Assembly (NCBI GenBank): GCA_028534125.1
Contig: CM052828.1
Span: 60,202,001 to 60,266,000 of the forward strand
DNA length: 64,000 nucleotides
DNA from: Lama glama
Lineage: Eukaryota
Reading direction: 5' to 3'
The notes beneath the pieces are model-generated. The model was not told the origin of the DNA and did not search any database. It worked only from the letters and a program-made list of their open reading frames with translations. Of the stretch, positions 27,128-48,929 are shown piece after piece. Numbering within the stretch: the first letter of the stretch is position 1; the number at the start of each line of letters is the position of its first letter. The translations under genes and the position numbers were made by a program.

Positions 27128-27538
27128 TGTGTGTTCTCTTCTCGGGGCTGCCGTTATCAGTAACGAAGGACCACAGACCAGGTGCCGAAAGGTCAGAACT
27201 TCACTCTCTCACATCCTGGAGGCAGCAGTCAGGGAGGGAGGCGTGGGCAGGGCTGCTTCCTCTGCAGGTGCAGGGGAGGATCTGTCCTGGCCTCTCCGGG
27301 GCGTCTGGTGGTTCCTGGCAGCACGACTCCAGTCTTCCCGTGGCGTCTCCTGGGGTCTCTTCTGTGTCCAGACTTCCCTTTCATAAGGACACCAGTCGCT
27401 GGATTAGGGCCTCTCTCCCCCAGTGTGGCCTCAACTAATTGCATTTGCAGTGACCCTGTTTCCAAGGTCGCCTTCTGAAATACAGGGGGTTGGGGCTTCA
27501 AGATATGAGTTATCCAGGACACGATTCAGCCCATAACC
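27128..27538 (-). mobile_element. MLT1B/C-like MaLR solo LTR (copy A)
   Basis: ggggctgccgt...ataaggacaccagtcgctggattagggc...tttgcagtgaccctgtttcca...ggacacgattcagcccataac. Confidence 0.9.
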
Positions 27539-28259
27539 CTGGTGTTGGCATTTACAGTTTTGGGCAAGGCAGGTGACAGAGACCAGCATGAGGCCGGTAG
27601 GCAGAGCAGATGCTGCCACACCCAGCAAGGTTCCTGGAGGAGCAGGGCCCTGGGCCAGGCTGAAGCTGCGATCACCAGGGTGGCTTCATCTCTCAGACTT
27701 CCAGGAGCCTATGAGAAGAGGGGAACTGTGGACTGGCCCCTAGTCCCTGGGGAGTGAGCTGCCCCATGGCTGGGAGCAGAGGCAGGTGTGCTCCTAGCAT
27801 CTTGGTGGACCAGGGAGGGGACTGGTCTTGGAGTGGTAACTGTGCAGCTTCTGGAGTCAGAGAAGGGCCCCCTGGCTATGGGTTTGATGTCTTCCCTTGT
27901 GCAGGTGGTACTCCTGCCCAAACTGGCAGCTGGTGGCCCCGGGTGTGTTTCCAGGCATCGTCTCACTCTGAGCAGGATGGGAATGAGCGAAGCCCTGAGC
28001 AGTAATGGTTTCAGCTGCTCGATGAGAGGGAGCTTCCCTGCGCCCTCACGACCCGCCAAGCGCTGTGCTGAGCATGTGCGCTGTCATGGGGTCTGGCCCT
28101 CTCCTAGAGGGAGCCCTGATCCCGCTGTCTGGATAAAAGTGGGTGTTGAGTAATCCTTTGGAGGGTCTTAGCTGTGTGCTGGGCTCTGCCCCATCATTCC
28201 GGGTCCAGAGGGCATGGTCTCAGCCATGTGCTATGCTCCCTTTGCCGCAACTACTAAAA

Positions 28260-28755
28260 GATTCAGAAGGATGCCTTTGAGGAGGCCTTGCGGAGGAGGG
28301 GAAACGTGGCAGGGCTGGGCTGTAAGAGCTGGTCAAGCCTGGTGTCTGGGTTGGGTCTGAGCATCGCAGATGGTGGTGGGCGAGGTGTGCCTTCAGGAGG
28401 TGGGAGTCTGGCTCTCGTGGGCACAAAGCTGTGTGTGCAGAGGGTGGGAAGTAAGTTGGGGAGGAAAAATGGGAGTGATCAGACTGTGGAAGGCTTTGAC
28501 AGCAAGCAGTGGTGTTTAAAGTCGAGTCTGCTTGTGTGAGCAGGTGCTGTAAGTTCTTGAGAAGGGGGTTAACTTGACAAAGAGGAATAAGAGGCAACTG
28601 ACCAGAGAGTGACTGAAGGTGGAGCCCTGGGGGCCCGGCTCCCCATGGAGGACAGTGGCAGTAACCCAGGTGCAAAATGATGAGCTTTTGCAGGATCGAA
28701 AAAGAGGTAGGAACATTTTCAATGGAAGGCACTAAATTAGGAACAGACTTGCTGT
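28260..28755 (-). mobile_element. L2 fragment
   Basis: Antisense L2 motifs (gcagtaacccaggtgcaaaatgatg; gactgtggaaggctttgacagc). Confidence 0.55.
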
Positions 28756-29204
28756 AAAGAACAGGCGGTTTACATCCCTGATTATTCACAGCTATCGTAA
28801 TTTCATGTCATTTGATATTTACTGCAAAAAACCTATTGCACATGCACTCAAAGGTGATTTTAACAAATAAACACTGTGACTTTGCATACGAATAAATTCA
28901 CACCTCTGAGAAGAGTTGTCAGATCATGTGTCCTGTTACGAGTTTTGGCTTGTAGCTGAGAAAACACAAGTCCAGGAGCAGATGGATTGGGGCAGCTCTG
29001 AGCCAGCGTGTCATACCGCGGGTGGGCGAGTGTGGGGACAGGCGGCCTTGGCTGGGAGCAGGCACCACTGCAGACACACACAGCTGTGGGTGACCTTGAG
29101 GGTCTGGGGATGCAGGCAGCACGTCTCCAGTGGGTGCAGAGCCCAGAGCCCGGGAAATCAGAGAGGCCAGAAACAGCAAGTGAGAGGCAGGTGAGTCCCC
29201 AGCC

Positions 29205-29525
29205 GGGGTCAGAAGTTGGGCTTGTTTCGCTTTGTTTGGCTGGACGTGGACGAGCCTGGACGCCCAGCTGCAGACTCTGCCATTAGGATGGGAGAAGGAC
29301 GTCTACCGTAGGCTCCGAGCAGGGAGCACCGGCCGCTGGTGCGCAGGTGACCCAGACTCCCCGGTGGCTCGCCTGACTGCTTTCCTTTGCAGTCTCTCTT
29401 CTCTGGTTAAATCTGCTTTTTGGAACTCAGGGAAGGCCTAGGAGGCTAAAGCTTTTCTACAGACAAGAGGTGGGGGCCTGGGGATCTATCCCTGGGAAGG
29501 CCCCACGGGGCTCTGCTCAGTTTTG
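29205..29525 (-). mobile_element. Internally deleted ERV1-like LTR
   Basis: gacccagactccccggtggct...tttggaactcagggaaggcctaggaggctaaagcttttctacagacaagagg...gggaaggccccac...ctgctcagttt resembles laurasiatherian ERV1 LTRs. Confidence 0.6.
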
Positions 29526-30029
29526 GTGACTTCTTAAACCACCCTCTAGAGGTACGAAGTGTGTTCTTTGTTTCTCACCTCTGCTGCCAGCAGGAAGGAT
29601 GCTGGGAGGGCCAGAGCGGTAGCAGCCATCAGGGGCCAGGAGGCCTCCCTCGGGAAGCAGCTGTGTCTCTGACCTTGGGGGCTTCCTGCTCAGGGCTCCT
29701 CACCTGAAGGGGAGATTACGTCTTAATTGGGTGGAGTCACTCTCCTCGCAGATTTTTGTTGCTGTTACTCTCAGCTAAACTTGACCCCAGCTCATACTCC
29801 GGGCAGGGGCTTCCCCACACCAACCAGAAGCAGTGCTCCGTAAAGGAGGTGTTACCCGTACCCACCAGAGGGAGACCTGGGGCTTACTGTGCGGACAGGA
29901 GCCTTTGCCTCATCTCTGCTTCTAGAAAAAGCCAGCTTGAATATAAACTTCTCATTGAATCTGCCTCTATGTAAGGCGTCAAAGTATTTCTCTTCGGGTT
30001 AAGCACTCTTTTTGACAGGAATTTGGTCC

Positions 30030-30165
30030 AGCTGATCTGCTAAGCAAATTACATAATTTCCATGAACTTCAGTTTCCCTGCCTGTGGAATTGGGCACCAT
30101 AGCATCGCTGTGAGAACGGGTGGTGAGATGTGCCTGGCAGAGTGCCGAGTGGTGGGATGGACTCA
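30030..30165 (+). mobile_element. MIR SINE
   Basis: gcaaattacataatttccatgaacttcagtttccctgcctgtggaattggg. Confidence 0.55.
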
Positions 30166-30318
30166 GTTCACGGCGTTGTCAGTGCAGCAGTGTCGTCATG
30201 GAACTTCAGGGACATCGTAGATTTAAATAGAATGAAGGACGGGATATTCTGCTTTCCTAACAAAGGTCTGATTCTGATTCCTGTTTTGCTTTTGACTTTA
30301 TGTGGCTGCTCATTCCAG

Positions 30319-30366
30319 TAATTTACAATGGATTTAAATAATAGCAAAAATAATCTGCAGGTTTTG
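30319..30366 (+). other. Candidate 48-nt exon containing an ATG
   Basis: ctcattccag|taatttacaATGgatttaaataatagcaaaaataatctgcaggttttg|gtaagt. Confidence 0.3.
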
Positions 30367-30512
30367 GTAAGTGGGGCTAATCTCTAAATCCCTGGTACAA
30401 AGTAAATTCCCAAATATGTCCAGTATTCTGTATCTGAATTACTGCACTTTTGATTTTTGGTTGGTTAACTATGGTAAGCTTGCGTTTGGTCTTCTGTAAC
30501 ATGGAGGGCAAA

Positions 30513-30538
30513 TGTGTGTGTGTGTGTGCGCGCGCGTG
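30513..30538. repeat. (TG)n(CG)n alternating purine-pyrimidine microsatellite
   Basis: tgtgtgtgtgtgtgtgcgcgcgcgtg. Confidence 0.9.
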
Positions 30539-33500
30539 AGTGTGGTGGGGGCGCAGTATTAAGCAGTTTTAAATAGCTGGTCAGGCGCCATCCCAGTAAG
30601 AGAGTAAATGTGGGTTGACAGGCGCCTGTTTAAGAGCCTCTTTCTACAGGGCTTTTGCGACCCAGTCCAGACCTTTAGGCTGAACATTTAAAAGATAACC
30701 ATGTTTGTGGAAAGATGGATTCCTCCCTCTGCCCTCACACTTTCATTTACACAGAATGACTTTTCTTTAAACGCTGGATCTCCTGTTATGCTAATCAGAC
30801 AGGGGCCATTTCCAGTTCAGCTTCACCTGGGCCTGGTTAGCCAGTTCCTTTTGTGGCCTCTCTGGAGACCTTCTTCGTCTTCTAGGCTGTAGTGTGGTTG
30901 GAGCTGCTGTCAGGTTCCTGCACTCATTCCATTTGTGACGATATTGCAGACATTTCATCCTGCCATGCTGCTGGCCTGGAGAGCCGTGTGTCCCCAGGCT
31001 GGCGGCTTGCCGGCCTCAGTCTTCCTGGCCACGCAGCCGGCGCCTTGCCCAGATGCCCAGCTCTCCGGCTGATTTGCACTGACTCTGGGGCTGGAAGGTT
31101 GGCTCCGCGGAGGCTGACAAGAGACTCCGCTGCTCTGGAGTTAATTAGTGATTTCACCAAGGAGGCCGGGCTGGGGCCACTGGCCCCACTGCTCTCATGC
31201 TGACCCGTCTCGGGGGAAATGAGATTCTAAACCCACTACTTTTAAAGTCGGCACAAGAGACCCAGTCATGAAGAGTGTTCTGTGATTAGTCTTTATCACA
31301 ATTACCAGCTGTCTCGGAAACCCACAACAGCAACCTTCCTACTCCTGGTCCTGCCAGCCGGTCCCGCATCTGCGTCTGGTGCCCAGTGCTGGGAAAAAGG
31401 GGAGAACATGCCTGCCGGGTGGCGCCGGGGCTGAGCCACCGTGAACAGGCAGGGAGCCAGAGAGCAGACCGCCGGGCAGCTGGCCGTCCTGGGAGGTTTC
31501 TGTCCTGTTTGTGGGAAGAGCCAGAGTCTCCGGATCAGACCTACGCATGTCACATTGGTCTCCTAATCGTGGATGATCAGTCACGGTGGTCTTAAAAAAT
31601 CTGTCTTCCTGGAACATGTGAAGGTGCTGTTAACAAAAAACAGGAGACAGAGACAGAGAGAGAAGGATATATGTATGGGGGGAGGGAGGCTGACCTGTGA
31701 ACCTCTGGAGTGTGCCCTCCCTCTGCACTGTCCGTGCCCAGAATTGGTGTTCCTGTGCGGCCCCCTGCAGCTGCAGTCCTGACGTTGGGCCGGTGACTGC
31801 AAGTTCCCACACGGGGCTTGGTGTCCTCGCTGGTAAAATGGGGATGAGGAGCCGCCTTCTGGGGGTGTGTTCCAGGAACACTGGCCCCTCAGTCCCCGGT
31901 CCTGGCAGCCAACCCGAGGTGGTCCAAGAGCAGGTGCCGGCCTGCTCCTTTGTGCTCCATTTCTGGGGCCCATGTGTCCAGGCCTGGAGGCTGCCTGTGG
32001 CTCCGTGTCCAGGAGGCCCATTGGCCCCCATAGTTTTGGGGGTGATTCCAGAGCTCTAAAGCCGAAACCTCCTGCCTGGCCTTTTGCTAAGTGGAAATTG
32101 TAGGGACAGCTCTGCCCAGAACAGTGTCACTTGAGGTCTTGGGAAAACTGAGGAGCCGAAGACAGACGACCACCAGGGGATGCACAAAAAGCGGCTGTCC
32201 TGCAGTGACACTTGGTTCTCTGGAGACGCTGTGGACAGTGGAGAGCCTTCCACCTGCAGGCAGAATGTGGCTCTGAGCGCCAGCCTTGCCGATTGGAAGC
32301 TGGGTGACCCTAGGAGGTTCCTTAACTTCTCTGGGCCTCCATTTCCTTACGCAGGAACTGAGGGATGTACTGTCGAGTAAAACAGTAAATGGAGAAGAGC
32401 CTGCGGACAGCTGTAGGAGCGTTCACATGTCAACTATTTTTGTACTTAGAAAAGAAAGTGCCCAAATCATTTTATCACTTCAGACTAAGGGTATAGTCTA
32501 TTAATTGGACCTAAATATTACCTACTTTTTAGGAAAGTGTGCCTGTGGTGTGGTCAGAATTATGGCTGTGAGACCACCGGCCAAGTTAGAGGATAGTCAG
32601 ACCCTCAGAGTTAATTTGTTTTTATCCGGGTCCTACCTCATGGTTGATTAAGTAGTTAAGGATACGGTAGGGAACTATGTTTTGTGGTTTTGTTTTTTTT
32701 GGTGGGGGAGCAGCATCGTGCTCTGGCAGCTGCCTTTGAACTGTCTTTGTTTCCTTGCAACCAGAAGGTTGTGGTCTGTAAGCACCTTTTAAAGTGTAAT
32801 AAGCTAGAAGGTGAGAAGTGATCCTTCTTGCAGTCCATTCCCTGGAAGAATGCTTTCCGTACCTGCATCCTTTGATGGGTCTCGGTCTTTACTTCGTCTT
32901 GCACGTTACTCATGGTGATAGAGCCCCTTCCGTGTCCTGGGCACTGAGTTTTCCACCAATGGCGTCAGCATCACACGACTCTTAAACATCCGCGTCCAGG
33001 ACATAGTCTGGTTTGTTGCCACTGCCAGAAAGGACGTGGTCGGCCTCAAGGAGCGCTGTGCTCACAGCAGAAGGTGGGAACTGGAGGAGGCGGAGGCAGG
33101 CTTGGCACCGCCGCTGGGCTGTGGAGGAGGCGGGCACGACTGTTCACCCTGCTGCAGGACGGGCTTCCCAGGGGGAGAAGACCTCCATGGGGTTGGGCAT
33201 GAGCCCGTGTGTCCAGGGGAGCCTTGAGCAATGGGCAGGTGAGTGATGGAGTTAGGGAAGCAGAGAAGGTGGAACCTGCGGTGAGGACCAGGCAGAGGAC
33301 ATCAGCCACCGTGAGAGGCCGTTCAGGCACCACGGTCGACTTTCCAACAGGGACGGGCATAGAAATCCTATTGTAGTAACACTGCCTAGTGACTGGAGCT
33401 CATCACAGGGAAAGGGACTGGGACCAGGAGGAAGGCTGAGTGAGAAACACGGAGACGAGGAGCAGGACACGTGACTGGCTGGATCCAGGCGGCAGAGACA

Positions 33501-35088
33501 AGAAGAATAGAGGATGGAGAGGCCCCCACGACCCATCGTTTCTCCTGCACTTGGTGCCCCTTTGCCTTGGGTGGCAGGTCGGTTGCTGCTGATCTTCTTG
33601 AAGTGGGAAGCATTGTGAGCCACCTGGAGAGAAGGCCAGGGAACCAGGAAGGACCACTACCTGTGCAGGAGGCAATGCTGGTAGAGGCCTGGGCTCCTGC
33701 AGCAGGACCTGGCGGACAGGGACACACCCACGATGCACACTCTGCTTGGGAGGAATTCGGTGCCTGAAATGAGCAGCGACCTCAGTGCTGGTCAGCAGGC
33801 CTGTGCAGGTAGGCCGTTCGCTGGTGCAGCTGGAGCCTGGGGGCCTCTAGAGTTGTGGCAGTGTGACCAGTGTGTTTGGGGATAACCTTAGTGATTCCTG
33901 GCCAGTGAAGAGTCAGTCATTCTGTTTCAAATTTGTATTAAGTTAAAAATTCCTTTTATTTGCAGATAAACTGTTACATGTGGTGACATCTTTCTTTAAG
34001 GGGTCCCTCCTGGGTTTCCACCTTCACCTCCTTGCCGGGGCTCTGCAGGAACCCCGACCCGTCAGCACAGGGAGTCTAGACGAGCAGGCAGTTGGAATTC
34101 CGCCTGTGACGCATGCCAGCGTGTCCCGGCCGCACCGCAGACCAGCACCTCCCGCACCCAAGCACCAGGGCCCTGGGGACGAGGTGCGCCTCACCCTGCC
34201 CAGCGGACCAGCCTGCGACACCCGTCTTATGTCTGGAAACCTTTCCTTTTGCTCTGCAGTTGTAAGCAGCATCGTCTCAGTCACACACCTTTGGGGAAGG
34301 GAGTCTGGGAAGCACACTGAGCCTCGTCTTTCCGAGGTGCTTGTTCTTGTACCACAGACGGGCTTTCCCTCTGGACACTGTGAAGAAGATTGGCCATGGG
34401 GGATGGCCTCCTAGTTCAAGTTCCAACTGTCTCTCTGGGAAAGCCCCGTCCCCTTTCCTTGCAGACTCACACACAGATGCTTGCAACGGCTGTTTTAATT
34501 CAAACCTGGTTCAAATGTCGATCGTTTCAATGAACTACAATTAGTACACTATTTAAAAAAGATTATTTCATCATTTTGAGTGTAGTTGAGTATTCAGTCC
34601 TTTTCAAAATTAAATCTACTTTGGGGGCTTGAGGAAATCAAATCAGACATCGTGGTGATGAAAAAGAAAGCAAAATGTTACAATGCTGACTGTCGGGTCA
34701 ACAGACTCCTTTAGACCTACTCGCTCACTTTGACAGTCTCCTGGGGAGAATGGATTTCTGGCAACACTGTCTCTGAGCAAAACCACATTGTATTAGGGTC
34801 AAATAAAATTAAACTGAAATTGAAATGTAATTTAAAGGTCGATGGGTCTCAGTCACTAACTGCGGCACCCAGGAGAGTCCAGATACGTGCTCTGCCCCAT
34901 CGGACCTGTTCTTTTATGAGTCTCACTAACCACCAGTCGTCTGGGGACTTTGGTGGCCCGTGGACACTCGGTTAGCTCTGCTAGCACGGCAGCCACCGAC
35001 AGCAGACCGAAGTCCCAGAGGTGCAGAAACCCATCTCTGTGACCACCGCACCCTCCTGGACTAGGAGATGCGACATCTGTCTCTCAGT

Positions 35089-35110
35089 AAAAAAAAAAAA
35101 AAAAAAAAAA
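35089..35110 (+). repeat. Poly(A) tract
   Basis: About 22 consecutive A. Confidence 0.9.
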
Positions 35111-35599
35111 CTGAAATAAAGATTTGCTCTTCTCTTGTCTGAATGACAGCTCCATTTATTAATCGTGGATTAATTGATTTTCCTTCTCATTCTGAAAGAA
35201 CTCTGAGGAAGCTGGGTCACCAGCCCAGGGAGCAATTCCCATGCTTTGCCGTTCGGGTTTTGCAGAAAGCGTGAAACCAGCCCTGTTGACCTTTCTCGGG
35301 AAGCGGACTCACTTTCTCGTCCAAGGCTCAGAAGGGAGCACCCAGCCTTAGAGAGAAGAATGTGTGCTCATGCCTGCCTCCCAAAGTCTCAGCTCGCTCC
35401 TTCCCCCCAAATCTTTCTCCTCGCCAGCAGTGTCGCAACCTGAAAAAGAAAGTTCTAGCCCCCTGACTCCTTTCCCTTCAAACCCAAGTCTTAGGCAGTG
35501 GTGTTTCTACAGCTGAGAAATGGAAACAAGACATGGTCTTTAAGTGCCCACTAGAGCAGTGACTGCTTTTGACTGCTTCCTCCAAAATACAGCTGCCAT

Positions 35600-35725
35600 C
35601 TAGCACAGATGGAAACTGAGGCACGGGGTAAGTGACCTTGGTCAAGGTCACTTGGCAAGTGTGCATTGGAGCCCTGAGTATCTTGACCCGTGCAGAGCTC
35701 GGATCTGGATCTCCCAAGCCCCCTG
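35600..35725 (-). mobile_element. MIR SINE
   Basis: acagatggaaactgaggcacggggtaagtgaccttggtcaaggtcac. Confidence 0.75.
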
Positions 35726-37169
35726 GTGTGCTAGCAGGGAGGTGGTAGAGACCCCTGGGGAGGGGCAGGAAGGCCAGACACAGTCCTCTGACGGTGCATG
35801 CTGATGTCTGCGTTCATCCTCGACGGCGCGCTGCAGCGACTGGGCCTCACAGTGGGGACGCCACATGGAGCGGGAGACTGTCCTGGGGCTGGGGCTCCCT
35901 GGGCGGCCACTGAGAGGTGTTTTCATTTTGCCGGCTCGTAAAAGCTTTGTTTCGGAAAGGTAGCTTCATTGAGATGTCTTTCCCAGTGGAAACATTCACC
36001 ACACTGGAGGGAACACTTTGTTTGCAAGGTTGTTAATTTATCACCTTCTTTGATTCTTTTGAAGTAACACATGCTGGCCCCTAACCCTCTGGTCCATTTG
36101 GAAAGTCACCTGGTAGTGGCCATTTTTTTAGAATGAGAAAAAGCAAGGATGGTCTTTCTCTGACTATGGAGGAAGGAGATACGGCGATCAGGAGGGTCTC
36201 GTGTAGGTGTGCGTGCCACCAGGGACAGACACTCGCCAGACCTTGAGGAGCTCCCCACATCTTCTGCACGCCTTGAAAATACCTCAAAGGATTCACAGTG
36301 CCTTGCATGTCACCAAAGAAATATGTTCTTTTAACGAAGGTTCTTGAACTCTGTGAAAAGGCCCCAGAGAGGCAACAGCCTTCAACATTCAAGACCTTCA
36401 GGAGACAGGGCTGAGCGTGTCACTGGAGTGTGTCTGGGGACTTTTAGGTGAAAGCGTGACTATGCAGATTGTTGGTGACTTGCACATTGGATCAGTGGGA
36501 CTGTTGTGTGTCTGTCTGCATGGCCCTGAACGCAGTGACCACTGCAGTGGTGAGCTCACCCTGGTCTGTTCGCCACAGGGTCTCAGCATCCAAAGGTCAG
36601 AGTGGGTAAAGACACCTTCATGGCGCCCACGACCTTGGGGCAGCCGCTCTCCACTCTTCTGGTTGTTACTCTGGGATTTGGTGTGTATTTCTAAACACAG
36701 TGCTGTTTTTGGTTTTTCAGTGTCAGATATGATTTATTGACCTACTAAGGACAAGGAAGATTTCACTTCCTTGCATCTGCCCGGAAGCACACATCCTCTC
36801 CCCTGTCCTTTCCGTAAAGGGCTATTTTATCTTTTGGTTGCACTGACATCCAGCACCCATATTAACTTGCCGATCTACCAGCCACTCATGCTGAGTCTTG
36901 TGGTGAACAAAGGGTGAGCTTTTTTCTTATACTTTCTGTTTTTTCTGGAGTTTTGTTCCATTTGCATAATTTCCTACATCCTTCCCCTGTTTCCACCCCT
37001 AAGATTTAAATACAAGACAGTAGACTGACTCTGTCTCATCTGGGCTGCCTGCTGTCCGACCTGCCGTTTCGCTGATTCTCTGGGCTCGTCTGCTCTGGAT
37101 GTGCTGGGACGGCTTGACCCCCTACCCGCTGGGTCTCACATCAGTCCCTCACGGTTTACCTTCCTTCTG

Positions 37170-37970
37170 GTGGGGTACGTCTTCCACTCAGTTTCTAGAG
37201 AAGGTGTGTGTGGAAGATAATGTCTGGGTCATGGTCTTACTCTGCACTCGCCCTTAGCTGGTGGCTTGGCTGGGGACAGACATCTAGATTTGGCATGGTT
37301 TTCCCTCAGGTTTGAGAGTTACTGCCCCGTTGTCTTCAAGCTTCTGGTGCCCAGAGTCTTGAGGCTGTTCTAATTCTCCATCCTTTGTAACGGACTCCTT
37401 TTTATTTCCATCCCTAGAAGTGTTTGGAAGGGATCTTCTTTTGACCTGAGTATACTGAGCTCCGAGACTATGGTCCTTTTTATTTATATTATTTATGTGT
37501 GGGTGTCGGTCCATCCATTCCTTAATGGGCAACCACAGCCCAGATACGCACGTTCTTCAGTGGGGGCGTTTCCCTTAGTTCTCTTATAATTTCTTCCTCT
37601 GCATTTTCTTTCTTTACTCTTTCTGGAACCATACTGATCACATATTCTGTCTCCTGTATGGCTCATTTAATTTTTCTTATTTTGGCTCTATTTTCCGTCT
37701 TGATGATTTTTCTGACTTCTGAGTAATTTCATACTCTTTTTCTATTAAATTTTTAATTTTAATCATATTTTTAATCAATCATTTCTTGAGTGTGGCTCAT
37801 CTCCTTGTTACTAGGTTGCAATGTCTTCTCTTCTCTCTATGGTACTGTTAGTGATTAGTTGTGCTTATTTTTAAATTTCCTTCTGATCCCTGTCAAGGTC
37901 CTCTTCGCTGTTTGTTCATTTGTTTGTTTCAGCCTCTGTCTTTCTCTTGTCTGGTGACTCCTGGCTCTGG
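37170..37970 (-). mobile_element. Ancient L1/HAL1 ORF1-region relic
   Basis: T-rich strand with ttggctggggacagacatctagatttggcatggttttccctcagg...ccgttgtcttcaagcttctgg, corresponding to the antisense ORF1 C-terminus. Confidence 0.65.
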
Positions 37971-37998
37971 GCACGTTTAAGGAGAAGCACTAAGTAAA

Positions 37999-38283
37999 CA
38001 GCCATGCAGAGTTGGCTTGGAATGGCTTGGGAGAACCAGCCGTTAAATTTTCAGGAATTTTGTGAGCCCATTGGTATATGTTATTAAAAATTGAATTGTG
38101 TAAACTCACAATTATAAATTATGTGAAAAGCCAAAGTAACAAATACTTCAAACATCACTCTGTTTCCGTTCAGTGTATTTTACTGTTGTTTATGCTCTTG
38201 CGGTTACTACGTCTCCTGCGTGCTGGTCGCAGCACATGGTAGCATGTCCCGCTTTCCTTCCCAGCTCCCAGTCGGCACCACTG
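37999..38283. mobile_element. MER63-like hAT-Blackjack element
   Basis: gttaaattttcaggaattttgtgagcc...ttattaaaaattgaattgtgtaaactcacaatta...tatgctcttgcggtta; ends gcaccactg. Confidence 0.75.
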
Positions 38284-39051
38284 CAGTGGCAGCTTGACAC
38301 CAGCCCCGGTGGGGGTGTCCTCACCGTGGGGCTTGGCTGGCACTACAGAGCAGGCCTTCCCGACCCCCGACCGTCCTGGGGAGCCTGCTGCTGCGTACCA
38401 GCACTCCACTGCAAGAGCCCTCATCTTATCCTGGAGCTGGCGCTCACCTGTCCAGAGGATGTCCACTTGGTTTCCCAGTGTCAGTGTGGACTTGCATTGA
38501 CTGATGCCATGACCCCAGCCTCAGCCAGGGCTCCAGGACTCACACATTTCCCTCCCCAGCAGGCAGAAATTCTTTTTCTCCTCAGTCGAAACCCAGTTTC
38601 CTCCAATGTTGGGTCTAAACAAAGACCAGCATTTGACTAACAGTCTTTCTGAATTTCATAAAACCCTTTTATAAAAATGTTCACATTGCAGTTTTGAAAT
38701 GACTGCTTTCCAAAGACCAAGGCTGTTCCAGAGTAGCTTTTACTTCTCAGTGGGACTGTGGGTTTCAATTCTTTTGTATGTCTAAGAAACTGTAGTTTTT
38801 GTGGTATATGCATATTTTATTCTTTTATTGAAAAATATTTATAATAGTAATTAATAGCATATTCTGCAAAAAAGTGTTTAATATTTGCTGTAAAAGGAAT
38901 TATGGCTGTGAATGCATATTGCATTGTGATATTTTAAAGCAAAATGGAGAGTCCTATAGTTAAGACACAAGATAGCTTTGCATTATGGTTGATTTTCTTA
39001 AAGTGTTAAAATAAAAATTAAATCATACACATATATCATTTATAACAAAAT

Positions 39052-39207
39052 NNNNNNNNNNNNNNNNNNNNNNNNNNNNNNNNNNNNNNNNNNNNNNNNN
39101 NNNNNNNNNNNNNNNNNNNNNNNNNNNNNNNNNNNNNNNNNNNNNNNNNNNNNNNNNNNNNNNNNNNNNNNNNNNNNNNNNNNNNNNNNNNNNNNNNNNN
39201 NNNNNNN
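39052..39207. other. N gap (156 bp)
   Basis: Run of N. Confidence 1.
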
Positions 39208-39784
39208 GCTGGGTAAAGAAGGAAGCTCCTGATGATATAATAGTGTTTTCTGTAATGTCTGCTGCTGTTTAGGCTAGAAAGATATTTATTCCATTGAAAA
39301 TTCTTCTATTATGTTGTCTTAAACTTTCTCAAATATTCCTTTAGACTGGGTTTTATGTGCTTCAATTGAATCAAATGTAATAGTATTGAAAAAGTTTAAT
39401 CGAAGTCCCAGTGGATTTGTACATTAGAATGCTGTTCCCTTAACTGCTCCTGACAGGCATAGAAACACAAAATCCCCCCGCCCCCCAGTAATTAGTTTGG
39501 TATCATTTCAAAATATGAACAGTATAAACTTGAAAGGCACCAGAACTTGTTTTCTAAATACTTGGGCTGAAAATTCATTTAGAAGTTGAAGGCATTTATG
39601 TGGGTTGTATCAACTCACATAGGACTGATGTAATTATTCTGGTCTTAAGGTTTAAAAAGGTTTTGACTTACACACTTTGATTCAGCACATACATCTCATT
39701 CAGATGGTTGTCATCCAGTCAGTCATCACTTTAGAGGGAAAGCTTGGTTTCTGGAGTTATGTAGCTGAGGGGAGAATCTGTAGT

Positions 39785-40085
39785 GTGCATGTAAACAAAC
39801 GTACGCACATTCACACATACATACATACATATGAGATCTGTATACCTATTCAAGAAGTGTATTCACATGTATACATAATTATGAACATAAATGTTCATGT
39901 GCATGCACACAGACGTATAAACATGCACATCCATCAACATTTATGTACGCATTCACATATACATACTCAAGTACATGTGTGATCATTCGTACAGACACAG
40001 CCACACCGATACAGACCTGTCCATCGACACGTACATATTCATGAATATATGCACATTCACAGACGTAGCCACGTACACACAGAGA
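39785..40085. repeat. Degenerate CA/TA-rich simple repeat
   Basis: Recurrent cacatac/attcacat units. Confidence 0.75.
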
Positions 40086-40369
40086 CAGCTGGACGGAAAA
40101 GTGGTGTGTCTCAGGACTTGTGCCACCAAACTCAGGTCATAGTGTGTTTGGAGAAATCCGATGCGATGCAGCAGCTATGCAGATTTTAAGTTGGTGTGAG
40201 ATTAGTCGCGACTTGCTGACACACTCGGGCACCCGTCCCCAGTTTGATTTGTCAACGACCCTGTTAGTAAATTTACCCACAGCTGTGTTCTGCTCTCTGC
40301 TGACTTCCAAAGATTAAGCTAAAAATGTACAACTCATTCTGGATCTTTCATTTGTAAATTTGCAGCATC

Positions 40370-40950
40370 CTTTTAAAAATAAAACTTATTTTCTTATATT
40401 TAATGTAATTCCTGGTTATTATAACAGTGTGGAAAATATGGCAGAACCAGGATCAGCAGGAGCTCTTCGGCCCCGGCGGTGGTTCACGCAGCCGCAGCGC
40501 TCAGCCGGAACGCCCGTGCCTTCTCTTCCCCGGAAGCAGTTTTACAGCACTGAGGTCCTCCTGTAGTAGGGTTTTTATTCTGCCTTTCTTCTAGCTGTGT
40601 TGCAGCATTAGCATTTTCCCATGTCATTAAAATTCTTGGTCAGTTTTCAGTAACTGTAAAATCTCCCAGGTTTAGCTGCCATGAAACTCACCCCTCCCTG
40701 GCTCTGCTAGCTGGCAGCTAGAGGCTTTCCCTGCTCCGTGGTATTGCGGTTATCTCACAGTGAACACCCTTCAGTTAAGGAGCATCTTCTCAGACAGGAT
40801 CTTCAGAAATGAAGTTGCTGTGACAAGAGATACGAGCCCATCTCAGGTTCCTGATATATTGCCAAATTGCTTTCCCCTGAAAAAGGTCTGAACTTGGAAC
40901 TTGCTGTTGCTGTGTGAGCCCAGGTTTCACACTCATGCTTCTGTTGAACT
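40370..40950 (-). mobile_element. L1ME-type 3' end relic
   Basis: agcattttcccatgtcattaaaattctt...cagtgaacaccctt...agaaatgaagttgctg...tgatatattgccaaattgctttcc. Confidence 0.7.
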
Positions 40951-41863
40951 CGGTCAGTGTGGTGGTTTTTTCCATCATGCAGTTCTGTTCCACACTGACC
41001 CCAGTGTGAAACCCTAGCCTTGCGCTGTTGGCTTTCTCAAAGCAAGCACACCAGAGGCCTTTTGACTTCGTTGTTTCACAGATGAAACAAAGTACAAGTA
41101 GAAGTTCTGAGCATGGGGATGGCGCCGGAGGACTGAAGCTGCTGAGGAACACGTCCACCGGCTTTCCTCCCCTTGGTCTGCAGTGAGGGTGACATCGAAG
41201 ACCAGGAGAAGGTGGAGGGACGGTGTCGCAAAACGAGGGATAAAGCAGGAGCAGGGAGGAGGCCGCGTCGTCTCCCTGAGCTAGGAGCCGCCTCCGTCCT
41301 TGTGGGCTGTGCTGAAAAGGGAGGGAACTCTCAGGAGTGCACTGTTTAGGCCCTGGGGGCAGGCCCAGGAATCTGAGCTTGAACCAAGGCCCCAGGCGCT
41401 TCTGCGGACCCTCCAGTCAGCACCTCGGACAGCAGCCTGCCGCTCCTGAAGGGGGGCTGCTGCCTCCTGGCTGTGGCTGTGGCCCGAGGGGGTCCCCGTC
41501 CTGGGCCTTTCTGTGGTTTCTGTGACGCTATGTAAGATGTTCGGTGGGGTTGGGATGCCGGGGACAGTGCACTCCGCAGGCGCGTCACTCAGAATGGTTT
41601 ATGATGACAGAGCTGACACCTTTTTATGCAATTACAGTCCATACTTTTTCATTATTTTCTGCTTAGCTAGAGATCTATATACTTCCAGTTGATGGAGGAC
41701 ATAACATGGGAACAGTGAGTCTGTACAATGCATACGTGTGTATCCACCCACATTCAATACCTGTGCAGATAATACCTTATGATAATGTGGTACACCAGTT
41801 TTAATCAAAGCATCCTTTTGTCAGGGTGCAAAACTAATTGTGTTGTTGTGCGTTGGGGGGTCA

Positions 41864-41995
41864 NNNNNNNNNNNNNNNNNNNNNNNNNNNNNNNNNNNNN
41901 NNNNNNNNNNNNNNNNNNNNNNNNNNNNNNNNNNNNNNNNNNNNNNNNNNNNNNNNNNNNNNNNNNNNNNNNNNNNNNNNNNNNNNNNNNNNNNN
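41864..41995. other. N gap (132 bp)
   Basis: Run of N. Confidence 1.
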
Positions 41996-43224
41996 TCATG
42001 ATCCGCTGCTCCACACTGCAGGATTCTTCTTGACTAGTTAGGAAATGTAATTAATAAATGATAGGATTATTTATGGTTCACGGTGCCAGATTGGGAAACA
42101 CAGAGATACACAGAATGAGCTAAAAATGATTCTCCCTAGCAGCCAGCAGACTTTAATCCATGGATTGAATTGTCGTATCACTTGATGTAATGAAGTGAAT
42201 TCTGGGTGGAATTCATAGGACATTTCTGCACGTTGACCTTACTGTTCTGGGGGGCTGATGGAAAGCAGCCATGGTCGTTCCCAAACGGAGTTGCGGCACC
42301 GCGAGCCCTTCTTGGCCTGAGTGTGTCTAAGTAGTTCTCTTTGGTGGTGAGGGCGTGGAGGGTGGTGAAGGGATCGGCGTGCTATTGCCTAGAGTAGGAG
42401 CGCTCTCTGTAGAATGACTTCCAAACATAAAGTAGGACCCAGACTGGACTCATAACGAGAAAAGAAATCTGACATTCTCAACAAGTGTGGCTCCAGATTA
42501 TCAGATCGAAACATGTTCAGCCTGTGCTGTTTTCCCAAAAGTGATTTTTTTTGCATAAAAACAAACATTTATGTTTGTTTTCCAGGACTCTCGTGACTGT
42601 GGCACCCAGGGTGCACTTAGTAAGCACGTGTGTCCTTGAAAATGACTTGTTCGATGGGTGAGAGCCCAGAGCCCCACCCCACGTCCGCCCCCACCTCGTC
42701 CCCCCGCAGATGGTCTGGGAGGGTGGACAGTAAGCCGCAGGGCTTGCACACTCACATCAGCCCAGGAGCAGTGTCAGTGCCCACCCTGGGACGACCACGC
42801 CCGGGGCGGGGCTGGTCCCAGCAGCTGTTCCTTCAGGGGTGAGGAGTCTGGGCCCCAAACTAAGCGCTGTGTCCAGGGGGAGGCGCAGCCTGTGTGGACA
42901 CAAATCGGGCTTTGTTCTTGAGCTGCCTGGGGCGCTAAGCACTTCATCTAGGTGTTTTACCTTGTAACCCGCTAGCTACCCGTGAAGTAGGCCTGTTATT
43001 TATGTTTGTATTTAAATGTGGTCAGTAGGAGTAAAGAGGGGTGGGCGGGACTGTGAGAGAGAAGCAGCTGCAGCGCAGGTGGAGCCGCCTCAGCCGTGGT
43101 CCAGGAGGGCCCGACGGGAGGGCACTGCACCAGGGTTGGGAAGGGCTTCTTGCGGGCCAGCAGTTCTCAGCCCTTTCAGACCAGCACTCTCCCTCTCCTT
43201 GTGGGATGTCCCTGCCTGCTCTGG

Positions 43225-43358
43225 GCTAAGTAGTGCCCTCCCCCATTCACGTCCCTCAGGAGTTTGTGTGACTTTGCTTGGAAATTGGGTCTTTGCAGAG
43301 GTGGTTAGTTGAGATGAGGCCATGCTGGAATGGGGTGACTCTGGCATCCTTACAGAGG
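43225..43358 (+). mobile_element. MLT1C-like LTR 5' fragment
   Basis: tgtgactttgcttggaaattgggtctttgcagaggtggttagttgagatgaggccatgctgga. Confidence 0.7.
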
Positions 43359-44595
43359 AAAGTAATTTCTGCAAACTTCCACTTACTGTTGGAAAGTCAC
43401 AAGGGTGGGGCGTGTCTTCCTTAGATGGGGCTCTGAGGACGTCTGGACCATCAGTGTCCCTGGTCTCCACCGCCAAGCCCAGAGCAGGCTCCCCACCAGG
43501 AGGTCAGACCAGCCCACTGGTCTCCAAACGCCCTGGGCTTTCCCAGCTCCGCTGAGAACCACCGTCGGTACTGTCGATGGCGCCAGGGTACACTCCTCGT
43601 CCCGTGTGGGGCCATCTGTGGGATGCTGTGGGACTGGAAATCGTGGGTCCATTGGGGTGGAACCCGCAAGGCGGGACATGTGACTTCCTTTTGTTCGGGC
43701 GCAACTTTCGATTCCTTTGGGTGGGGCTGTGGTCGGGTAGAGGTGGCGGTAGGAGACTGTACAGCCCTGGGAGCGTTTTCCTGGCTCTGAAAAAGGAAGG
43801 TTCAGGCCAGGCAGAGGGACTCCCTGAGCTCCAGGCAGGACTCTCCAGAGGCGGGCTCCCGAGATGCAGTCGTGGGACTTGGGGGTCTGCAGGTTTTGGG
43901 CTAGATCGCTGCCTGGGTCTTAAATGGATGCTTGTAAAATCCCCTTTTGGGAGGAGAGTAGTAGACAGCTATACATTCTTCTCCACTTGGTTTTTGGGTA
44001 GGCGGCCGGGGGTGGCTGCGTTGAACGGAGCAGTCAGCTTCTCAGTGGCACCAGCTGCCACATGCCGAGTTCCCCTGTGGCACGCACGTTTATCGTCGGT
44101 TTTCTGATCTTTCCAATAAACTGGAGTATGACTATCGTCTCCTTTTTCCAGTTGAAACTGAGACCCAGAAGTTAAATATTTACCAATTCAAGGCTAAAAA
44201 TTTCTAAGTATCTGAGAGAATACCTCTGCCCCACTACCATGCTGTTTCTGCAGTGCTGCAGAATTTTCTGGCTCTTTTCTTGAGTAAAAATATTCTCCTC
44301 TGACAGAGCTAAGAAGCACAAATGCTTTCATGTCAGAAGAAGTTGCACTTACTGTTGAGTTGGTCAGGTATAAAGTGAATCAGACATAGCCTTCCATCCC
44401 TTCCTGACTTGTCAGTGCTTTCCCGAGTTTATTCACTGGCAGCTCTACCCAAACAGGAACAGCAGCTGGAGAAATAAAATTAGAGTAGTTACTGACATTA
44501 TATTGTAAAGTTCTCGTAAAATGGTTGATGGGTGATGAAGCATCCATGTGATAAAAACGGATGATTGGGAATTGATTTAGCCGTGCCCTTCCTGT

Positions 44596-44759
44596 NNNNN
44601 NNNNNNNNNNNNNNNNNNNNNNNNNNNNNNNNNNNNNNNNNNNNNNNNNNNNNNNNNNNNNNNNNNNNNNNNNNNNNNNNNNNNNNNNNNNNNNNNNNNN
44701 NNNNNNNNNNNNNNNNNNNNNNNNNNNNNNNNNNNNNNNNNNNNNNNNNNNNNNNNNNN
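44596..44759. other. N gap (164 bp)
   Basis: Run of N. Confidence 1.
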
Positions 44760-47009
44760 TTGGCAGCTTGAGAGTAGCACGTCACTGAGAGATGAAGGTG
44801 CTGGAGCTAATCAGGCTGAACAGCACTGACGTTTGCAAGAGGAGATTGCCAGTGTATTAGGATGGGGAAGATGTTCTTAAAGTTGAACAGATTCTTCTGT
44901 GAATTTAAAGGGAGAAAAAAACACTTAAAAGCACAATTAAGTTTTCCTGGAAGTATTTTCCTCCATGGAATAGAATTTTAGTGTCTGATTCCAAAATTAG
45001 TAGTTACAACACCGCTGTTCACTAAGCACCTGAGATGGGAGTGAACAGAAAGGAACAGTTTGAAAGTCTTCCGCTGTATATATTTTTTACTGAATTTTTT
45101 TAAGGTGGGGAAGGGTTATTCGAGTTTCATTTTTGATTTATCCAGCTTCCAGCTGTTACTTGGGTTTAAAAACCATCTAGTAGAGAGACACCTGTCTGGT
45201 CGCTGCCCGTGAGCTTCAGTGCCGGGGCGGGAGCCTCCAGTTCCTCCTCCGACATCGGCCAGTGCTTCGGTGGGGCCTCTGTTTTGATTTGGATGCTTGT
45301 TTTCGGGTAGGAGATTCGATTCTGCCAATTAAGGTAGAACACCTGCTTTTTCTCTGATTTTTCAGTAGATTTACATTTTGAAAAGCAAAGCAGGTGCTTG
45401 AATTCTGTGGCATTATAATGAAATGAAAATTGTCCATGTCACCAAAGGGATGGAAAAATTTCCAAAAGGAAGTTGAATTCATGAAATGTTATGAGGCTGT
45501 GAGACCAAAATTCCAACGTGGCTTTTAAGGAGAGACTCAGCTGGGGAGCCTGGTGGGAGAATCTGGAGAGACTGAGTCTTTATGCATTGACACCCTAGGA
45601 CTCGATGGATTCCCAGAAAGAGTTTGAGGGGAAAAAAAGGAGTGTCGGGGTGCAATTTTATGTAGTATATTTAATACAGCATTTTAAACGTACTGTGAAT
45701 AGCAAATTGTCAGGAACTCTTAGCAGCGCTATTATATCTGTGATTCTGGAGCCAGGAAGAGAGATCCATGGGAAATTGCGGCAATTACAGTTCCATCTCA
45801 TTGATTAACACCGATTGCAAAATAGTCACGAAAATATTGGCATTGCAGCTTCTGTCTGTTTTACCTAATAATGTTCATGCCAATCAAACCAGGCTTTTCA
45901 AAGGAAAGCATTAAAACAGCAGAGGCAGCCCATGTGCCCTCTCAGTGTGGCAGCTTAATGCACGTAAGGCGAACACAAGCACACCTCTCCTGAACGCATC
46001 TCTTTCCAGCGCTGATGCTGAATTTTCAATCACCATTTCTTGGCTTAATCACAAGACACAAAGGTAGTTAACTTTAAAATGCTGCATGTTTTGATATGTA
46101 AAAAGGCTGTCAAATGGGATAGTCCTGTTACATGTTACGCAGCGAGTCACTGGAAAGACAGAAACCTGAAACCAGATAATTTCTTCCCTGGAAAAAATAA
46201 TTAGTCCAGGAATTATGTTTCTATTTATATGTCTTTTCACCAAAAAATGAGAGGTTGTAGTTTGATGAAGTTTCCGAGCGTCTGAAAGTTGTTTACATTT
46301 CCTAGTGTTGTGCTGTGTTGTTTCACAAGTGATCTTGTTGCCTTTGTTATGCAGGAACTCTGGTTCCATCTTACCACGTTCTGCACCTTGTCCTGTATCT
46401 TGTTCTGTAACTTGTCCATGTCTTTATGCAGGGACACCTTTGGTCAAAGCAAAAACTGTAGATATAAAATTCAGCGCATTCTGCAAAGCTTTCCTTGCTT
46501 ATGTTAGTGTTCTGCCCAGCCCTTGCCCCTGTGTTTATGGTGAACCAAGAGTGACAGGGGTTGGGAAGATGGGAGACCCTTTCTTCCAGACCTCTAGACG
46601 GTGATTGTAGGGCACCATCAGCTCTCTGGAAAGACACCTCCTGAAGTTGCACATCCCCTAGATATGTTTGGTTGGGATGCAGGGAGAATGAGAGAAAGTT
46701 CTTGAAGACATTGTGGTAGCCACACTAGAGAAATCTCATCAAAACCCTCCAGTTTAGTTTGTTGCTGATTGAAAGCTAAGAAAAGAGCAATTGTGAACAA
46801 GAATTAAGCCAGTCTTACAACTATAAATTCATAAATTGCCAGTCCCCACTAAGAGGTTCGTGTGTACATGGAATCAGCAGTGACAGCACGAGGTATCCAT
46901 CTAAAGAGCCTTGGAGCCGGGGAGGCTAGCAGAAGCGCAGACAGTGGGTGGCGGAGCGCCCTCCATCCTTCAGCCTGCCCCTGCTCCTCTCCAGCTCGGT
47001 TACGTGGGC

Positions 47010-47200
47010 CCTGCAGCACTGTTCAGGCTCTTTGCACAGACTGGCTCTGGTGTTGTCTCCCTGTGAGGGAGGGGGCTGATGCTACTTTAGGGACACTAGA
47101 CTCAGAGAGGGGTGGTAACTTGCTAAGACCACATGGCCAGTAAGAGGCAGGTCTGGGATCCATGGCAAGGCTGTGTGGATCCATCTTCCATGACACACAA
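47010..47200 (-). mobile_element. MIR SINE
   Basis: gactcagagaggggtggtaacttgctaagaccacatggccagtaagaggcag. Confidence 0.65.
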
Positions 47201-47405
47201 GTGACTGCTGACTGGCGCCTTCCACCTGTAAGGTGTCCAGGGTGTACTGTGATGGTCAGCCGTACACCATTTCTTTAGCATTCAGGGCCAAGTGTTTCAT
47301 CAGAGATTAAGTCAAGCAAGTTGAGCTATTCTGAAAGATTTTGCTGGATTACAATACAGTTCGTTTTCAGAGTGAGTCTGGTCCGGAGAGTGAAATAAAT
47401 ATGTT

Positions 47406-48540
47406 AGCTGTTCTCAGATGTTTTGGTTCCAGAATCCCGTTACACTCCTAAAAATCACTGAGGACCCCCAAAAGCCTCTGTTTCTGTGGGTTCTATTCAC
47501 TGATACTGACCGTATGAGAAGTTAAAACAGAAACATCAGAAATTTTTATTTATTAACTTATTTAAAAATTATAATGATAAACCCATTCTATCAAACAAAA
47601 AACACTAGTGAGAAGAGTAGCACTGTTTTACATTTTTACAGATTTCTTTGATGTCAGGCGTAGTAAAGGCGGCTGTGTTTCCATGCTTGTTCTGCCGCCA
47701 GTCTGTTTCAATATGTTGTTTTGGTTGAAATACATGAAAAAAAATCCAGCCACACACAGCTATGTAGTTGGAAAAAGAAGTATTTTAACAACCTTTTCAG
47801 AGATTTTCAGATGTTCTTCTTTGGTGCGACACCAGAGCTCAACAAGCCAGAACACCTGCAAGGCTAGCTGCGGTGCGGCACCCGGGCACGCGCCCTCGGG
47901 CTTCCATGCTCTGCTGCGCCAAGCCCGCTGCTCTGTGAGCGGGCCTGCTTTACCCAAACGTGATTTTGTAGCACCGTGCAGTCATTGGTCATTTGAAAAA
48001 AATGTTTCCCTCAGTTGTGTAGGTCTTCCAGATGCTCCCAGATTCCATCATCCAATACTGAAAGATCATATTCGTTAAGAATGCCATCACCCATGTCGTC
48101 AGAGGCGTCCCTCGTACTGCCAGGGTGGCAGGCTCACCGAGGCCAAAACTAGTTCTGCAGCGTTTGATGTTTCCTTTGAAAGCTCACACATTTGCTTGGC
48201 AGCAGATACCCTCATTGTTTTCCCTGAAGTCACCGGGTCTCTTCTGTGTGAGTTTTTGAGAAGACGTCTGTTGGATACCCAGGTCCAAAGAGACACTGGT
48301 CTTGGTTGGTCTTGGACACTGGTGTTCTAGGGTAAAGGGTGGCTGGCGAGCTCAGACACTCGTCACATCTCGGATGCGGCTGAGAGCCCAGGAGGACCTG
48401 AGCTTTCGTTACAGTCCTTCTCCTCACTGCTTCAGCGGCAGGATGTTCCTCCTCTTGAGTTTTTAGCTCAGAGCACGTGGTGGTTAACAGTCCAGTGCCG
48501 ACCAGTGGAATCTGGTGTCAGCCTTGACTGGCACCAGGAG
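47406..48540 (-). mobile_element. Charlie1-family hAT DNA transposon relic
   Basis: gttctcagatgttttgg...ttacactcctaaaaatcactgaggacccc...tagtgagaagagtagcactgttttacatttt...tatgttgttttggttgaa...tatgtagttggaaaa matches the recalled Charlie1/1a end. The right boundary is approximate. Confidence 0.85.
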
Positions 48541-48586
48541 CCAGGGCTTTGCCTGCCTGGTGGGAAGAGAAGCTCCTTTCCTGAGC

Positions 48587-48929
48587 TGCCATGTGGGCTG
48601 AATTGTGTCCCCAGTAAGACATGCTCCACCTGACTTTATCTGGAAACAGGGTCATTGCTTATGTAATCAGTTGAGGTCACACTGGGGGAGGGAGGCCCTA
48701 ATCCAGTGACTGGTGTCCTTGTGAAAGGGAAGTCTGGGCACAGAAGAGACCCCAGGAGACGCTGTGGGGAGACTGGAGTCGTGCTGCCGGGAACCACCGG
48801 ACGCCCTGGAGAGGCTGGGGCAGACCCCCCCTGCACCTGCAGAGGGAGCGGCCCTGCCCACACCTCCCTCCCCGACTGCTGAGCCCGACCTGTGGTCCTT
48901 TGTTACTGCAGCCGCGGGACATTCCTGCA
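48587..48929 (+). mobile_element. MLT1B/C-like MaLR solo LTR (copy B)
   Basis: tgggctgaattgtgtcccc...tggaaacagggtcattgc...ggccctaatccagtgactggtgtcctt...tgtggtcctttgttactgcagcc. Confidence 0.9.

Follow-up and report, generated by a model that had tools for sequence, protein, structure and literature searches.

Introduction

Non-allelic gene conversion between neighbouring repeats is described for Alu elements, with rates that drop beyond ~10 kb and are best at 89–100% identity, according to two reports (PMC6598467, PMC8230782), which cite Aleshin and Zhi (2010) for conversion between Alu neighbours. LTR-to-LTR conversion is described for the human Y chromosome, where solo LTRs both donate and accept sequence, most exchanges stay on one chromosome, and maximum tracts are 14–450 bp (PMC4921805, in whose main text the term "MLT" does not appear). 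In a human genome, an old MLT1B LTR has been duplicated locally but not in tandem (PMC5829575), and gene conversion at the Neisseria pilE locus depends on a G-quadruplex (PMC3547852, PMC13463697).

Here, we analyzed a 64,000-nucleotide stretch of Lama glama contig CM052828.1 (positions 60,202,001–60,266,000; "the window") that contains an inverted pair of old LTR copies, A and B. This pair is half of a quartet, as two further copies of the same core, C and D, lie outside the window. From sequence comparison, we consider it probable, at roughly 0.78, that four ancient solo LTRs were inserted separately and that non-allelic gene conversion, acting repeatedly along the chromosome they share, subsequently overwrote the middle of each. 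As with neighbouring Alu elements, the repeats are mosaic, divergence is lower between same-chromosome neighbours, and the tree conflicts with the presumed true history; unlike the Alu cases, which mostly lie within ~10 kb and for which 89–100% identity is best, the four LTRs lie 21–307 kb apart, differ in their unconverted 3′ ends (57–72% identity), and have one core in common (PMC6598467, PMC8230782). The human Y case likewise concerns solo LTRs, and its tract range brackets the 210-bp core; however, as described there, it is based on polymorphism and many donors raise diversity, whereas here a closed set of four would have been made uniform, the evidence being fixed sequence (PMC4921805). 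In the MLT1B case, a decayed LTR was also copied nearby without family-wide activity, providing a model for an early C/A event, but it is one recent whole-element copy, whereas the quartet has a four-way common core (PMC5829575). Finally, a G-quadruplex–forming motif adjoins the converted tract in both pilE and the quartet, although the pilE system is bacterial, programmed, and tested, and the quartet offers a motif match (PMC3547852, PMC13463697). A literature search largely confined to open-access main texts turned up no account of this locus and none of an MLT1 core held in common by several copies. The process is thus known; its range and copy number here are unusual.

Results

The inverted pair belongs to a closed set of four copies

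A self-BLAST of the window aligned 27223–27464 with 48881–48641 on the minus strand at 89.3% identity over 242 columns (25 mismatches, 1 gap, E = 1.7e-86), in agreement with the similarity of ~89% given in a preliminary description of this DNA. The match ranked first among four off-diagonal matches, the other three being at 69–79%. Also as described there, nearly all differences were transitions (23, with 2 transversions), and each of three quoted non-consensus words was present in both copies. The shared internal shortening held up in part: smaller deletions were private to the close copies, but the large internal one also occurred in the dispersed copies L005, L008, and L015 in the alignment and is therefore a subfamily trait.

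Sequence, genome search, and alignment delimited copy A at 27128–27537 (plus strand, as aligned) as a solo LTR of MLT1 type. Copy B, at 48592–48908 on the minus strand, was delimited by sequence and alignment as a solo LTR that is shorter than A, runs in the opposite orientation, and has deletions in both end segments. We take all four copies to be MLT1 (ERVL-MaLR) solo LTRs on the basis of terminal motifs and length, and the conventional direction of LTR A is presumably opposite to the plus strand given as aligned. An old, abundant, dispersed family of ~400 bp was indeed detected, with 36 dispersed matches at 68–78% (40 scored of 213 candidates); in the core region, the dispersed copies showed a mean identity of 65% to each other. 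Inspection by eye for 5-bp target-site duplications gave 4/5 matching letters on the two sides of C, with one of the possible start points, and none clear at A, B, or D. Between A and B, nhmmer placed another old LTR fragment in the same family (43250–43386, minus strand) through weak matches (best E 9e-6), and this fragment is not homogenized.

Genome-wide, close copies numbered four, confined to 307 kb of a single contig and in a nested arrangement with two copies in each direction (C and A plus, B and D minus). Copy C lies in ARHGEF7 intron 1, 246 kb upstream of A and 268–307 kb from B and D, and copy D lies 39 kb beyond B. The region is near one chromosome end. A diagnostic 25-mer, allowing up to two mismatches, had four matches in 2.35 Gb. 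The best genome matches of A were local, as the preliminary description expected under local conversion or duplication, and the genome searches returned no dispersed close match, but its partners were three (B, C, and D), not B alone. After the quartet, the next-best genome matches were at 68% near full length or at 75–85% over 60–165 bp. A metagenome scan gave no matches. A survey of 1.46 Mb gave 35 local copies and 404 alignable pairs; when each pair was scored on its best 100 columns, the six quartet pairs reached 0.92–0.96, followed by a pair at 0.75.

The similarity is confined to a core

The ~210-bp core was 90.4–94.3% identical within the quartet and at most 65.7% identical to the 35 other copies. 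Alignment and trees placed the core of A at 27223–27432 (plus; 90–91% to B, C, and D), and alignment placed that of B at 48673–48881 (minus; 90.4% to A, 94.3% to C, and 92.3% to D). Conversely, 3′ segments within the quartet were 57–72% identical, compared with means of 60–69% and maxima of 72–81% to other copies; thus, a bounded tract is much more alike than the remainder of the element. In both alignment and trees, the far end of A (27433–27537, plus) appeared unconverted: its identity was 66–71% to the other three copies, whereas one dispersed copy matched it at up to 81%. In the core tree, the quartet formed one clade (support 100/100, stem 0.30, tips 0.027–0.042), whereas for the 3′ segment, whose tree is weakly resolved with ~100 columns, none of 200 bootstrap trees united the quartet; tract and non-tract trees therefore disagree. 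Since the cores are 90–94% alike and the 3′ ends are diverged and ungrouped, the copies are best read as separate old insertions with overwritten middles, the independence of the four insertions being inferred from the 3′ ends.

Within the quartet, tract edges differed copy by copy. A, B, and C grouped in the 5′ tree (91/89), and A–C identity was layered (core 191/210, 5′ 66/83, 3′ 70/102; core versus 3′, p = 2e-6; core versus 5′, p = 0.01). Genome search and alignment identified an apparently older tract shared by A and C at 27114–27222 (plus), comprising ~14 bp of flank and the near end of A; it was 83% identical along 109 bp, had a 7-nt insertion in common, and in a genome search matched itself and C alone. 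Two-versus-two splits inside the core were of all three kinds (AD at four sites, AC at two, and AB at one). Several of the conflicting splits fall at CpG sites and could reflect repeat mutation.

In a relative ~4% diverged, a piece of the A core differed at 9/128 letters, compared with 43/1198 and 36/875 in the flank, and the A core is therefore not specially conserved there. Changes clearly common to copies in the relative only were not seen among the 40 of 141 differences listed. Polarizing changes against dispersed copies was set aside, being confounded by element composition.

A second homogenized pair lies nearby

Another pair of old repeats, 255 kb apart in direct orientation, was 81% identical over 313 bp, compared with 72% for the next match. 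The presence of a second homogenized pair close by points to a regional process acting at the DNA level; being direct, this pair could not form an RNA duplex. Of the 176 high-identity pairs in the 1.46-Mb survey, 163 were set aside as presumably LINE-like on their AT-rich composition; the remaining 13 comprised the six quartet pairs, six from families with at least 20 local partners, and the second pair. Other high-identity pairs in 864 kb, which are LINE-1 3′ ends, were rejected as ordinary, their coding part being alike across many copies.

Discussion

Repeated gene conversion as the probable origin of the common core

Long-range conversion, one of three explanations offered in the preliminary description, is supported here, although exchange would have linked a set of four, two in each orientation, and not a single inverted pair. 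As a first step, the near end and a short piece of flank may have been copied between C and A. Break repair would then have taken nearby look-alikes as templates, every exchange easing the next, with some 30 other local copies too diverged to join. Exchange presumably slowed or stopped at an age about one- to twofold that of the divergence from the ~4% diverged relative. This explanation needs no function. A G-quadruplex–type pattern match at the left edge of the A core (27232–27252, plus) occurred in 4/4 close copies and 0/35 others; such motifs occur at 0.48 per kb in this region, a chance of ~10% per 210 bp, and in the quartet it is shared by descent. That it marks a break-prone trigger at the core edge is a guess. 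Conversion does not explain how exchange started at ~60–70% identity between copies 20–300 kb apart, which is outside the range favoured by the published rates in the Alu reports (PMC6598467, PMC8230782).

If this reading is right, conversion has unified a closed set of very old, diverged LTRs over 20–300 kb, compared with ~10 kb for Alu elements. Converted cores would distort repeat dating and could pass for young families. They would also be new substrates for deletion or inversion; a C–A deletion would take ARHGEF7 and TEX29.

Possible selection for an RNA duplex

Neutral conversion does not predict one feature of the pair. The preliminary description proposed that many transition mismatches would become G–U pairs in a co-transcribed duplex, and the direction agrees, with 19 G–U versus 4 A–C pairs in the predicted A/B plus-strand RNA. 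The arms are long and opposite in orientation, with 216 Watson–Crick and 19 G–U pairs in 242 columns. Conversion may thus have produced the similarity while selection keeps A (perhaps also C) complementary to B and D in a plus-strand duplex of ~240 bp with a 21–60 kb loop, a reading that we regard as unlikely. Such a duplex might act as an editing substrate or as an aid to splicing or circularization.

Transitions giving G–U on the predicted plus-strand RNA amounted to 19/23 for A–B and 21/28 for A–D, compared with 444/788 (56%) for a control set of 22 inverted repeat pairs elsewhere in the interval (one-sided and uncorrected, p = 0.008 for A–B and 0.033 for A–D), and the A–B value of 0.83 exceeded those of control pairs from a wider interval (0.30–0.76 in the 40 of 44 listed). 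The nested arrangement, two copies each way, would suit such pairing, and the predicted duplex energy favors the plus strand (−468 versus −422 kcal/mol), although this follows from the same sites. However, four pairs were tested and both significant ones contain A; neither C–B (10/14) nor C–D (16/26) reached significance. Of the 19 G–U sites, 8 are sites where A has the majority letter of the outgroup copies and therefore may be unconverted or CpG-reverted. Greater age and partial saturation flatten the bias of the control pairs, and the plus-strand skew that runs throughout the interval, in line with plus-strand transcription, may stem from replication. In the relative, the A core is no more conserved than its flank, and its four visible differences, among the 40 of 141 listed, include two that are wobble-compatible and two that are not. 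Copy C lies in another gene, 268 kb or more from its partners, and the second homogenized pair is direct.

A is covered by contigs from runs labelled as RNA, which are strandless and possibly DNA. In run X20, whose RNA label is a guess, one contig lies over A (27138–27588) with little else, and this sparse cover carries no weight as evidence. In run X15, 28 A>G and 27 T>C changes fit species divergence. A conserved fold of the core by itself was considered separately and rejected (z = −0.94 and −1.04; eight folds, −0.82 to +0.34; two-sided changes in 0 of 67 pairs).

A fuller version, which we consider improbable, would have conversion among four dead LTRs, driven by G-quadruplexes, build the arms of a nested long-range duplex in a putative, unannotated plus-strand transcript of the TEX29–SOX1 interval under selection that lets through mainly wobble-compatible changes. 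If the G–U bias does reflect selection, a testable long-range RNA duplex would have been born by conversion; if the fuller version is true, converted cores of ancient inverted MLT1 pairs would be a recurring mammalian route to new RNA structure.

Other explanations

Repeated gene conversion also has to be weighed against three local duplications of a single LTR long ago, after which the core, as a regulatory element such as an enhancer or CTCF site, stayed under purifying selection while the ends drifted. The flank and near end common to A and C and the A, B, C cluster in the 5′ tree would fit this account, as would a CTCF-like word one mismatch from the CTCF motif in B and C; that word is weak, since neither A nor D matches it with one mismatch and such matches occur locally at 0.19 per kb. 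We judge the duplication account very unlikely, since the quartet 3′ ends are no closer than those of unrelated copies, the core is no more conserved than the flank in the relative, and 210 bp at 90% would go far beyond the need of a binding site. The unrelated 3′ ends are likewise at odds with the plain inverted duplication raised in the preliminary description.

That description had paired duplication with inversion of the intervening 21 kb, with A and B as breakpoints. Inversions are known to arise between homologous repeats in inverted orientation, with conversion taking place at the breakpoints (PMC5829575). The skew of the A–B interval (GC +0.06, AT −0.075, TG/CA 1.26), however, has the same sign as that of the adjoining 20 kb on the left (+0.029, −0.045, 1.21) and of the B–D interval (+0.04, −0.059, 1.18), which argues against a standing inversion, and C and D would be left without explanation; we give this account hardly any credence. 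Re-amplification of a young, lineage-specific LTR family, also suggested there, would fit the star-like short tips of the core tree but is refuted by the four genome-wide 25-mer matches, the old ends, and the failure of genome searches to return dispersed, high-identity, full-element copies, unless many copies are hidden by the assembly.

The interval between A and B also contains a candidate exon of 48 nt with splice-like ends, between AG and GTAAGT (30319–30366, plus); it has stops in all three frames and, if real, would be non-coding.

A local quartet of LTRs with a common core

Self-BLAST of the window bore out exactly what the preliminary description had reported for its two inverted, old MLT1-type solo LTRs, A (27128..27537, plus strand) and B (48592..48908, minus strand): 27223–27464 aligned with 48881–48641 on the minus strand at 89.3% identity over 242 columns, with 25 mismatches (23 transitions and 2 transversions) and 1 gap. 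Since 14 sequencing runs, five of which may be sources of the assembly, contained 96–100% of sampled words from 26600–31200, A is not an assembly artefact. Genome searches with A (40 scored of 213 candidates) and with the B core (40 scored of 172) returned the same four close copies, namely A, B, and two on the same contig (CM052828.1, C13) outside the window: C (C13 59982637–59983068, plus strand; matched part 59982668–59983068), which sits in intron 1 of ARHGEF7 some 3.4 kb from the start of that intron, and D (C13 60289165–60289545, minus strand; matched part 60289231–60289486). The A/B similarity is real, but A and B are two members of a group of four. The other scored matches were 68% identical near full length or 75–85% over short pieces.

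The window (C13 60202001–60266000) lies 1.3 Mb short of the end of the 61.6-Mb contig, in a gene-poor, GC-rich interval with TEX29 on one side and SOX1 on the other. Pfam matches marked an ING/PHD exon (59.854 Mb), a CH-domain first exon (59,979,200), betaPIX coiled-coil exons (60.079–60.080 Mb), TEX29 (60.089 Mb), and a SOXp gene (60.525 Mb); the resulting gene order, ING1, ARHGEF7, TEX29, SOX1, corresponds to that of human 13q34.

The four local copies have a common core, unlike 3′ ends, and a layered A–C identity. When the quartet was aligned with 35 other family copies (10 local and 25 dispersed), core identity (27223–27432 on A) was 90.4–94.3% within the quartet and at most 65.7% to any of the 35. 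The 3′ segment (27433–27535) was 57–72% identical within the quartet, no better than against the 35 others (means 60–69%, maxima 72–81%). In the 5′ segment, A and C were 79.5% identical, with at most 68% to other copies, and C was the sole genome partner of the A 5′ segment plus about 14 bp of flank. Trees were built from 16 of the 39 aligned rows (the quartet and 12 dispersed copies). The core tree recovered the quartet as a single clade (support 100/100, stem 0.30, tips 0.027–0.042), the 3′-segment tree united it in 0 of 200 bootstrap trees, and the 5′-segment tree grouped A, B, and C at 91/89. Tract edges differed from copy to copy, and all three types of two-against-two split were present (AD 4, AC 2, AB 1), some at CpG sites. 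The quartet's common differences from most outgroups comprised 23 weak-to-strong versus 7 strong-to-weak changes, an excess that is regional because other local copies are equally GC-rich.

Probable long-range exchange in the neighborhood

Conversion between TE copies is an established process, and the quartet core is real and mostly accounted for by it; what is unusual is its range, age, and copy number. Such conversion is reported to be elevated within 10 kb (PMC6598467) and best at 89–100% identity (PMC8230782), with maximum tracts of 14–450 bp in human Y LTRs (PMC4921805), and a decayed MLT1B copied locally has been described (PMC5829575). A camelid TE survey covers conversion between paired LTRs of a single element and makes no mention of MLT (PMC8605555). 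Among the papers listed by our literature searches, we found none on this locus.

A scan of 1.46 Mb around the window yielded 35 family copies of at least 150 bp and 404 alignable pairs. Over the best 100 columns, the six quartet pairs reached 0.92–0.96 and the next of the 404 pairs 0.75, and copies without conversion were present between and beside quartet members. The scan also revealed a direct pair of old repeats from another family (C13 59717205–59717515 and 59972755–59973061), 255 kb apart and 81% identical over 313 bp (next genome match, 72% over 235 bp), which looks like an older long-range conversion. As a direct pair is incapable of forming a duplex, long-range exchange at the DNA level would appear to characterize this neighborhood. 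The ARHGEF7 promoter is no more than about 6 kb from C and from one member of this second pair. An inverted LINE-like pair 38 kb apart (C13 60434188–60435087 and 60472430–60473333), with one fully identical run of 80 columns, is probably ordinary, as other copies are likewise 86–94% alike there.

We infer that the old LTR copies inserted separately, that an early copy event linked C and A, and that repeated homology-directed repair among the quartet, self-reinforcing as likeness grew, was followed by drift. Partner choice might conceivably have depended on a G-quadruplex motif or on chromatin contacts near the ARHGEF7 promoter. By pattern match, a G-quadruplex–type motif occurred at the left core edge in all four quartet copies and in 0 of the 35 others; its presence in the quartet counts as a single origin, and the regional rate is 0.48 per kb.

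Contigs of a relative (runs X15 and X16, one study), compared over 27000–30200, were about 4% diverged (88/2224, 43/1198, and 36/875 letters) and carried A in place, plus a piece of C. The contig taken as the A orthologue differed at 9 of 128 letters (27268–27395), so the A core is no more conserved than its flank in this relative. Comparison of the core tips with 0.02–0.035 per lineage suggests that the last exchange is roughly once to twice as old as the split from this relative, presumably some 15–35 million years if that split is New versus Old World camels. A short, high-copy repeat at 29393–29476, where contig depth was very high in each of the four runs compared, is probably a young interspersed element.

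RNA duplex, inversion, and young-family explanations

An A/B RNA duplex in which transitions become G-U pairs had also been proposed. In predicted plus-strand RNA, the expected direction was seen for A/B (19/23 transitions giving G-U, against 444/788, or 56%, among 22 further inverted pairs of repeats from the interval; one-sided p = 0.008) and A/D (21/28, p = 0.033), and was not significant for C/B (10/14, p = 0.19) and C/D (16/26, p = 0.37); the A/B core alone gave 17/20 (two-sided p = 0.011). This bias is a real hint of the predicted duplex, although four such tests were made, A contributes most of the signal, and the control pairs are older. At 8 of the 19 A/B G-U sites, A carries the outgroup-like letter. 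Contigs from RNA-labelled runs are possibly DNA, and strandless. Fold analysis of the core by itself gave nothing notable. The candidate exon proposed at 30319 has stop codons in all three frames; the AT-rich block holding this 48-nt AG/GT-bounded stretch (30240–30420) could contain a candidate non-coding exon or conserved element.

A standing inversion is argued against by GC skew, AT skew, and TG/CA, all of which have the same sign in the A–B interval as in both flanks. In the skewed stretch at C13 59.98–60.38 Mb, plus-strand G+T skew peaks in ARHGEF7 (TG/CA 1.56), and TG/CA holds at 1.2–1.3 for 290 kb beyond TEX29, fades, and is reversed by 60.65 Mb; one reading of this long skew is unannotated transcription or a replication domain.

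A re-amplified young dispersed family is refuted, as a diagnostic 25-base word across a private deletion had, at up to 2 mismatches, only four matches in 2.35 Gb, at the A, B, C, and D sites (backwards control, 0 matches in 2.35 Gb).

An open 579-aa frame (C13 59999936–60001672, minus strand) runs antisense within ARHGEF7, with a CpG island (60.003 Mb) some 1 kb away. It has CENP-B_N, HTH_Tnp_Tc5, and DDE_1 Pfam domains and is possibly a domesticated Tigger-type transposase gene.
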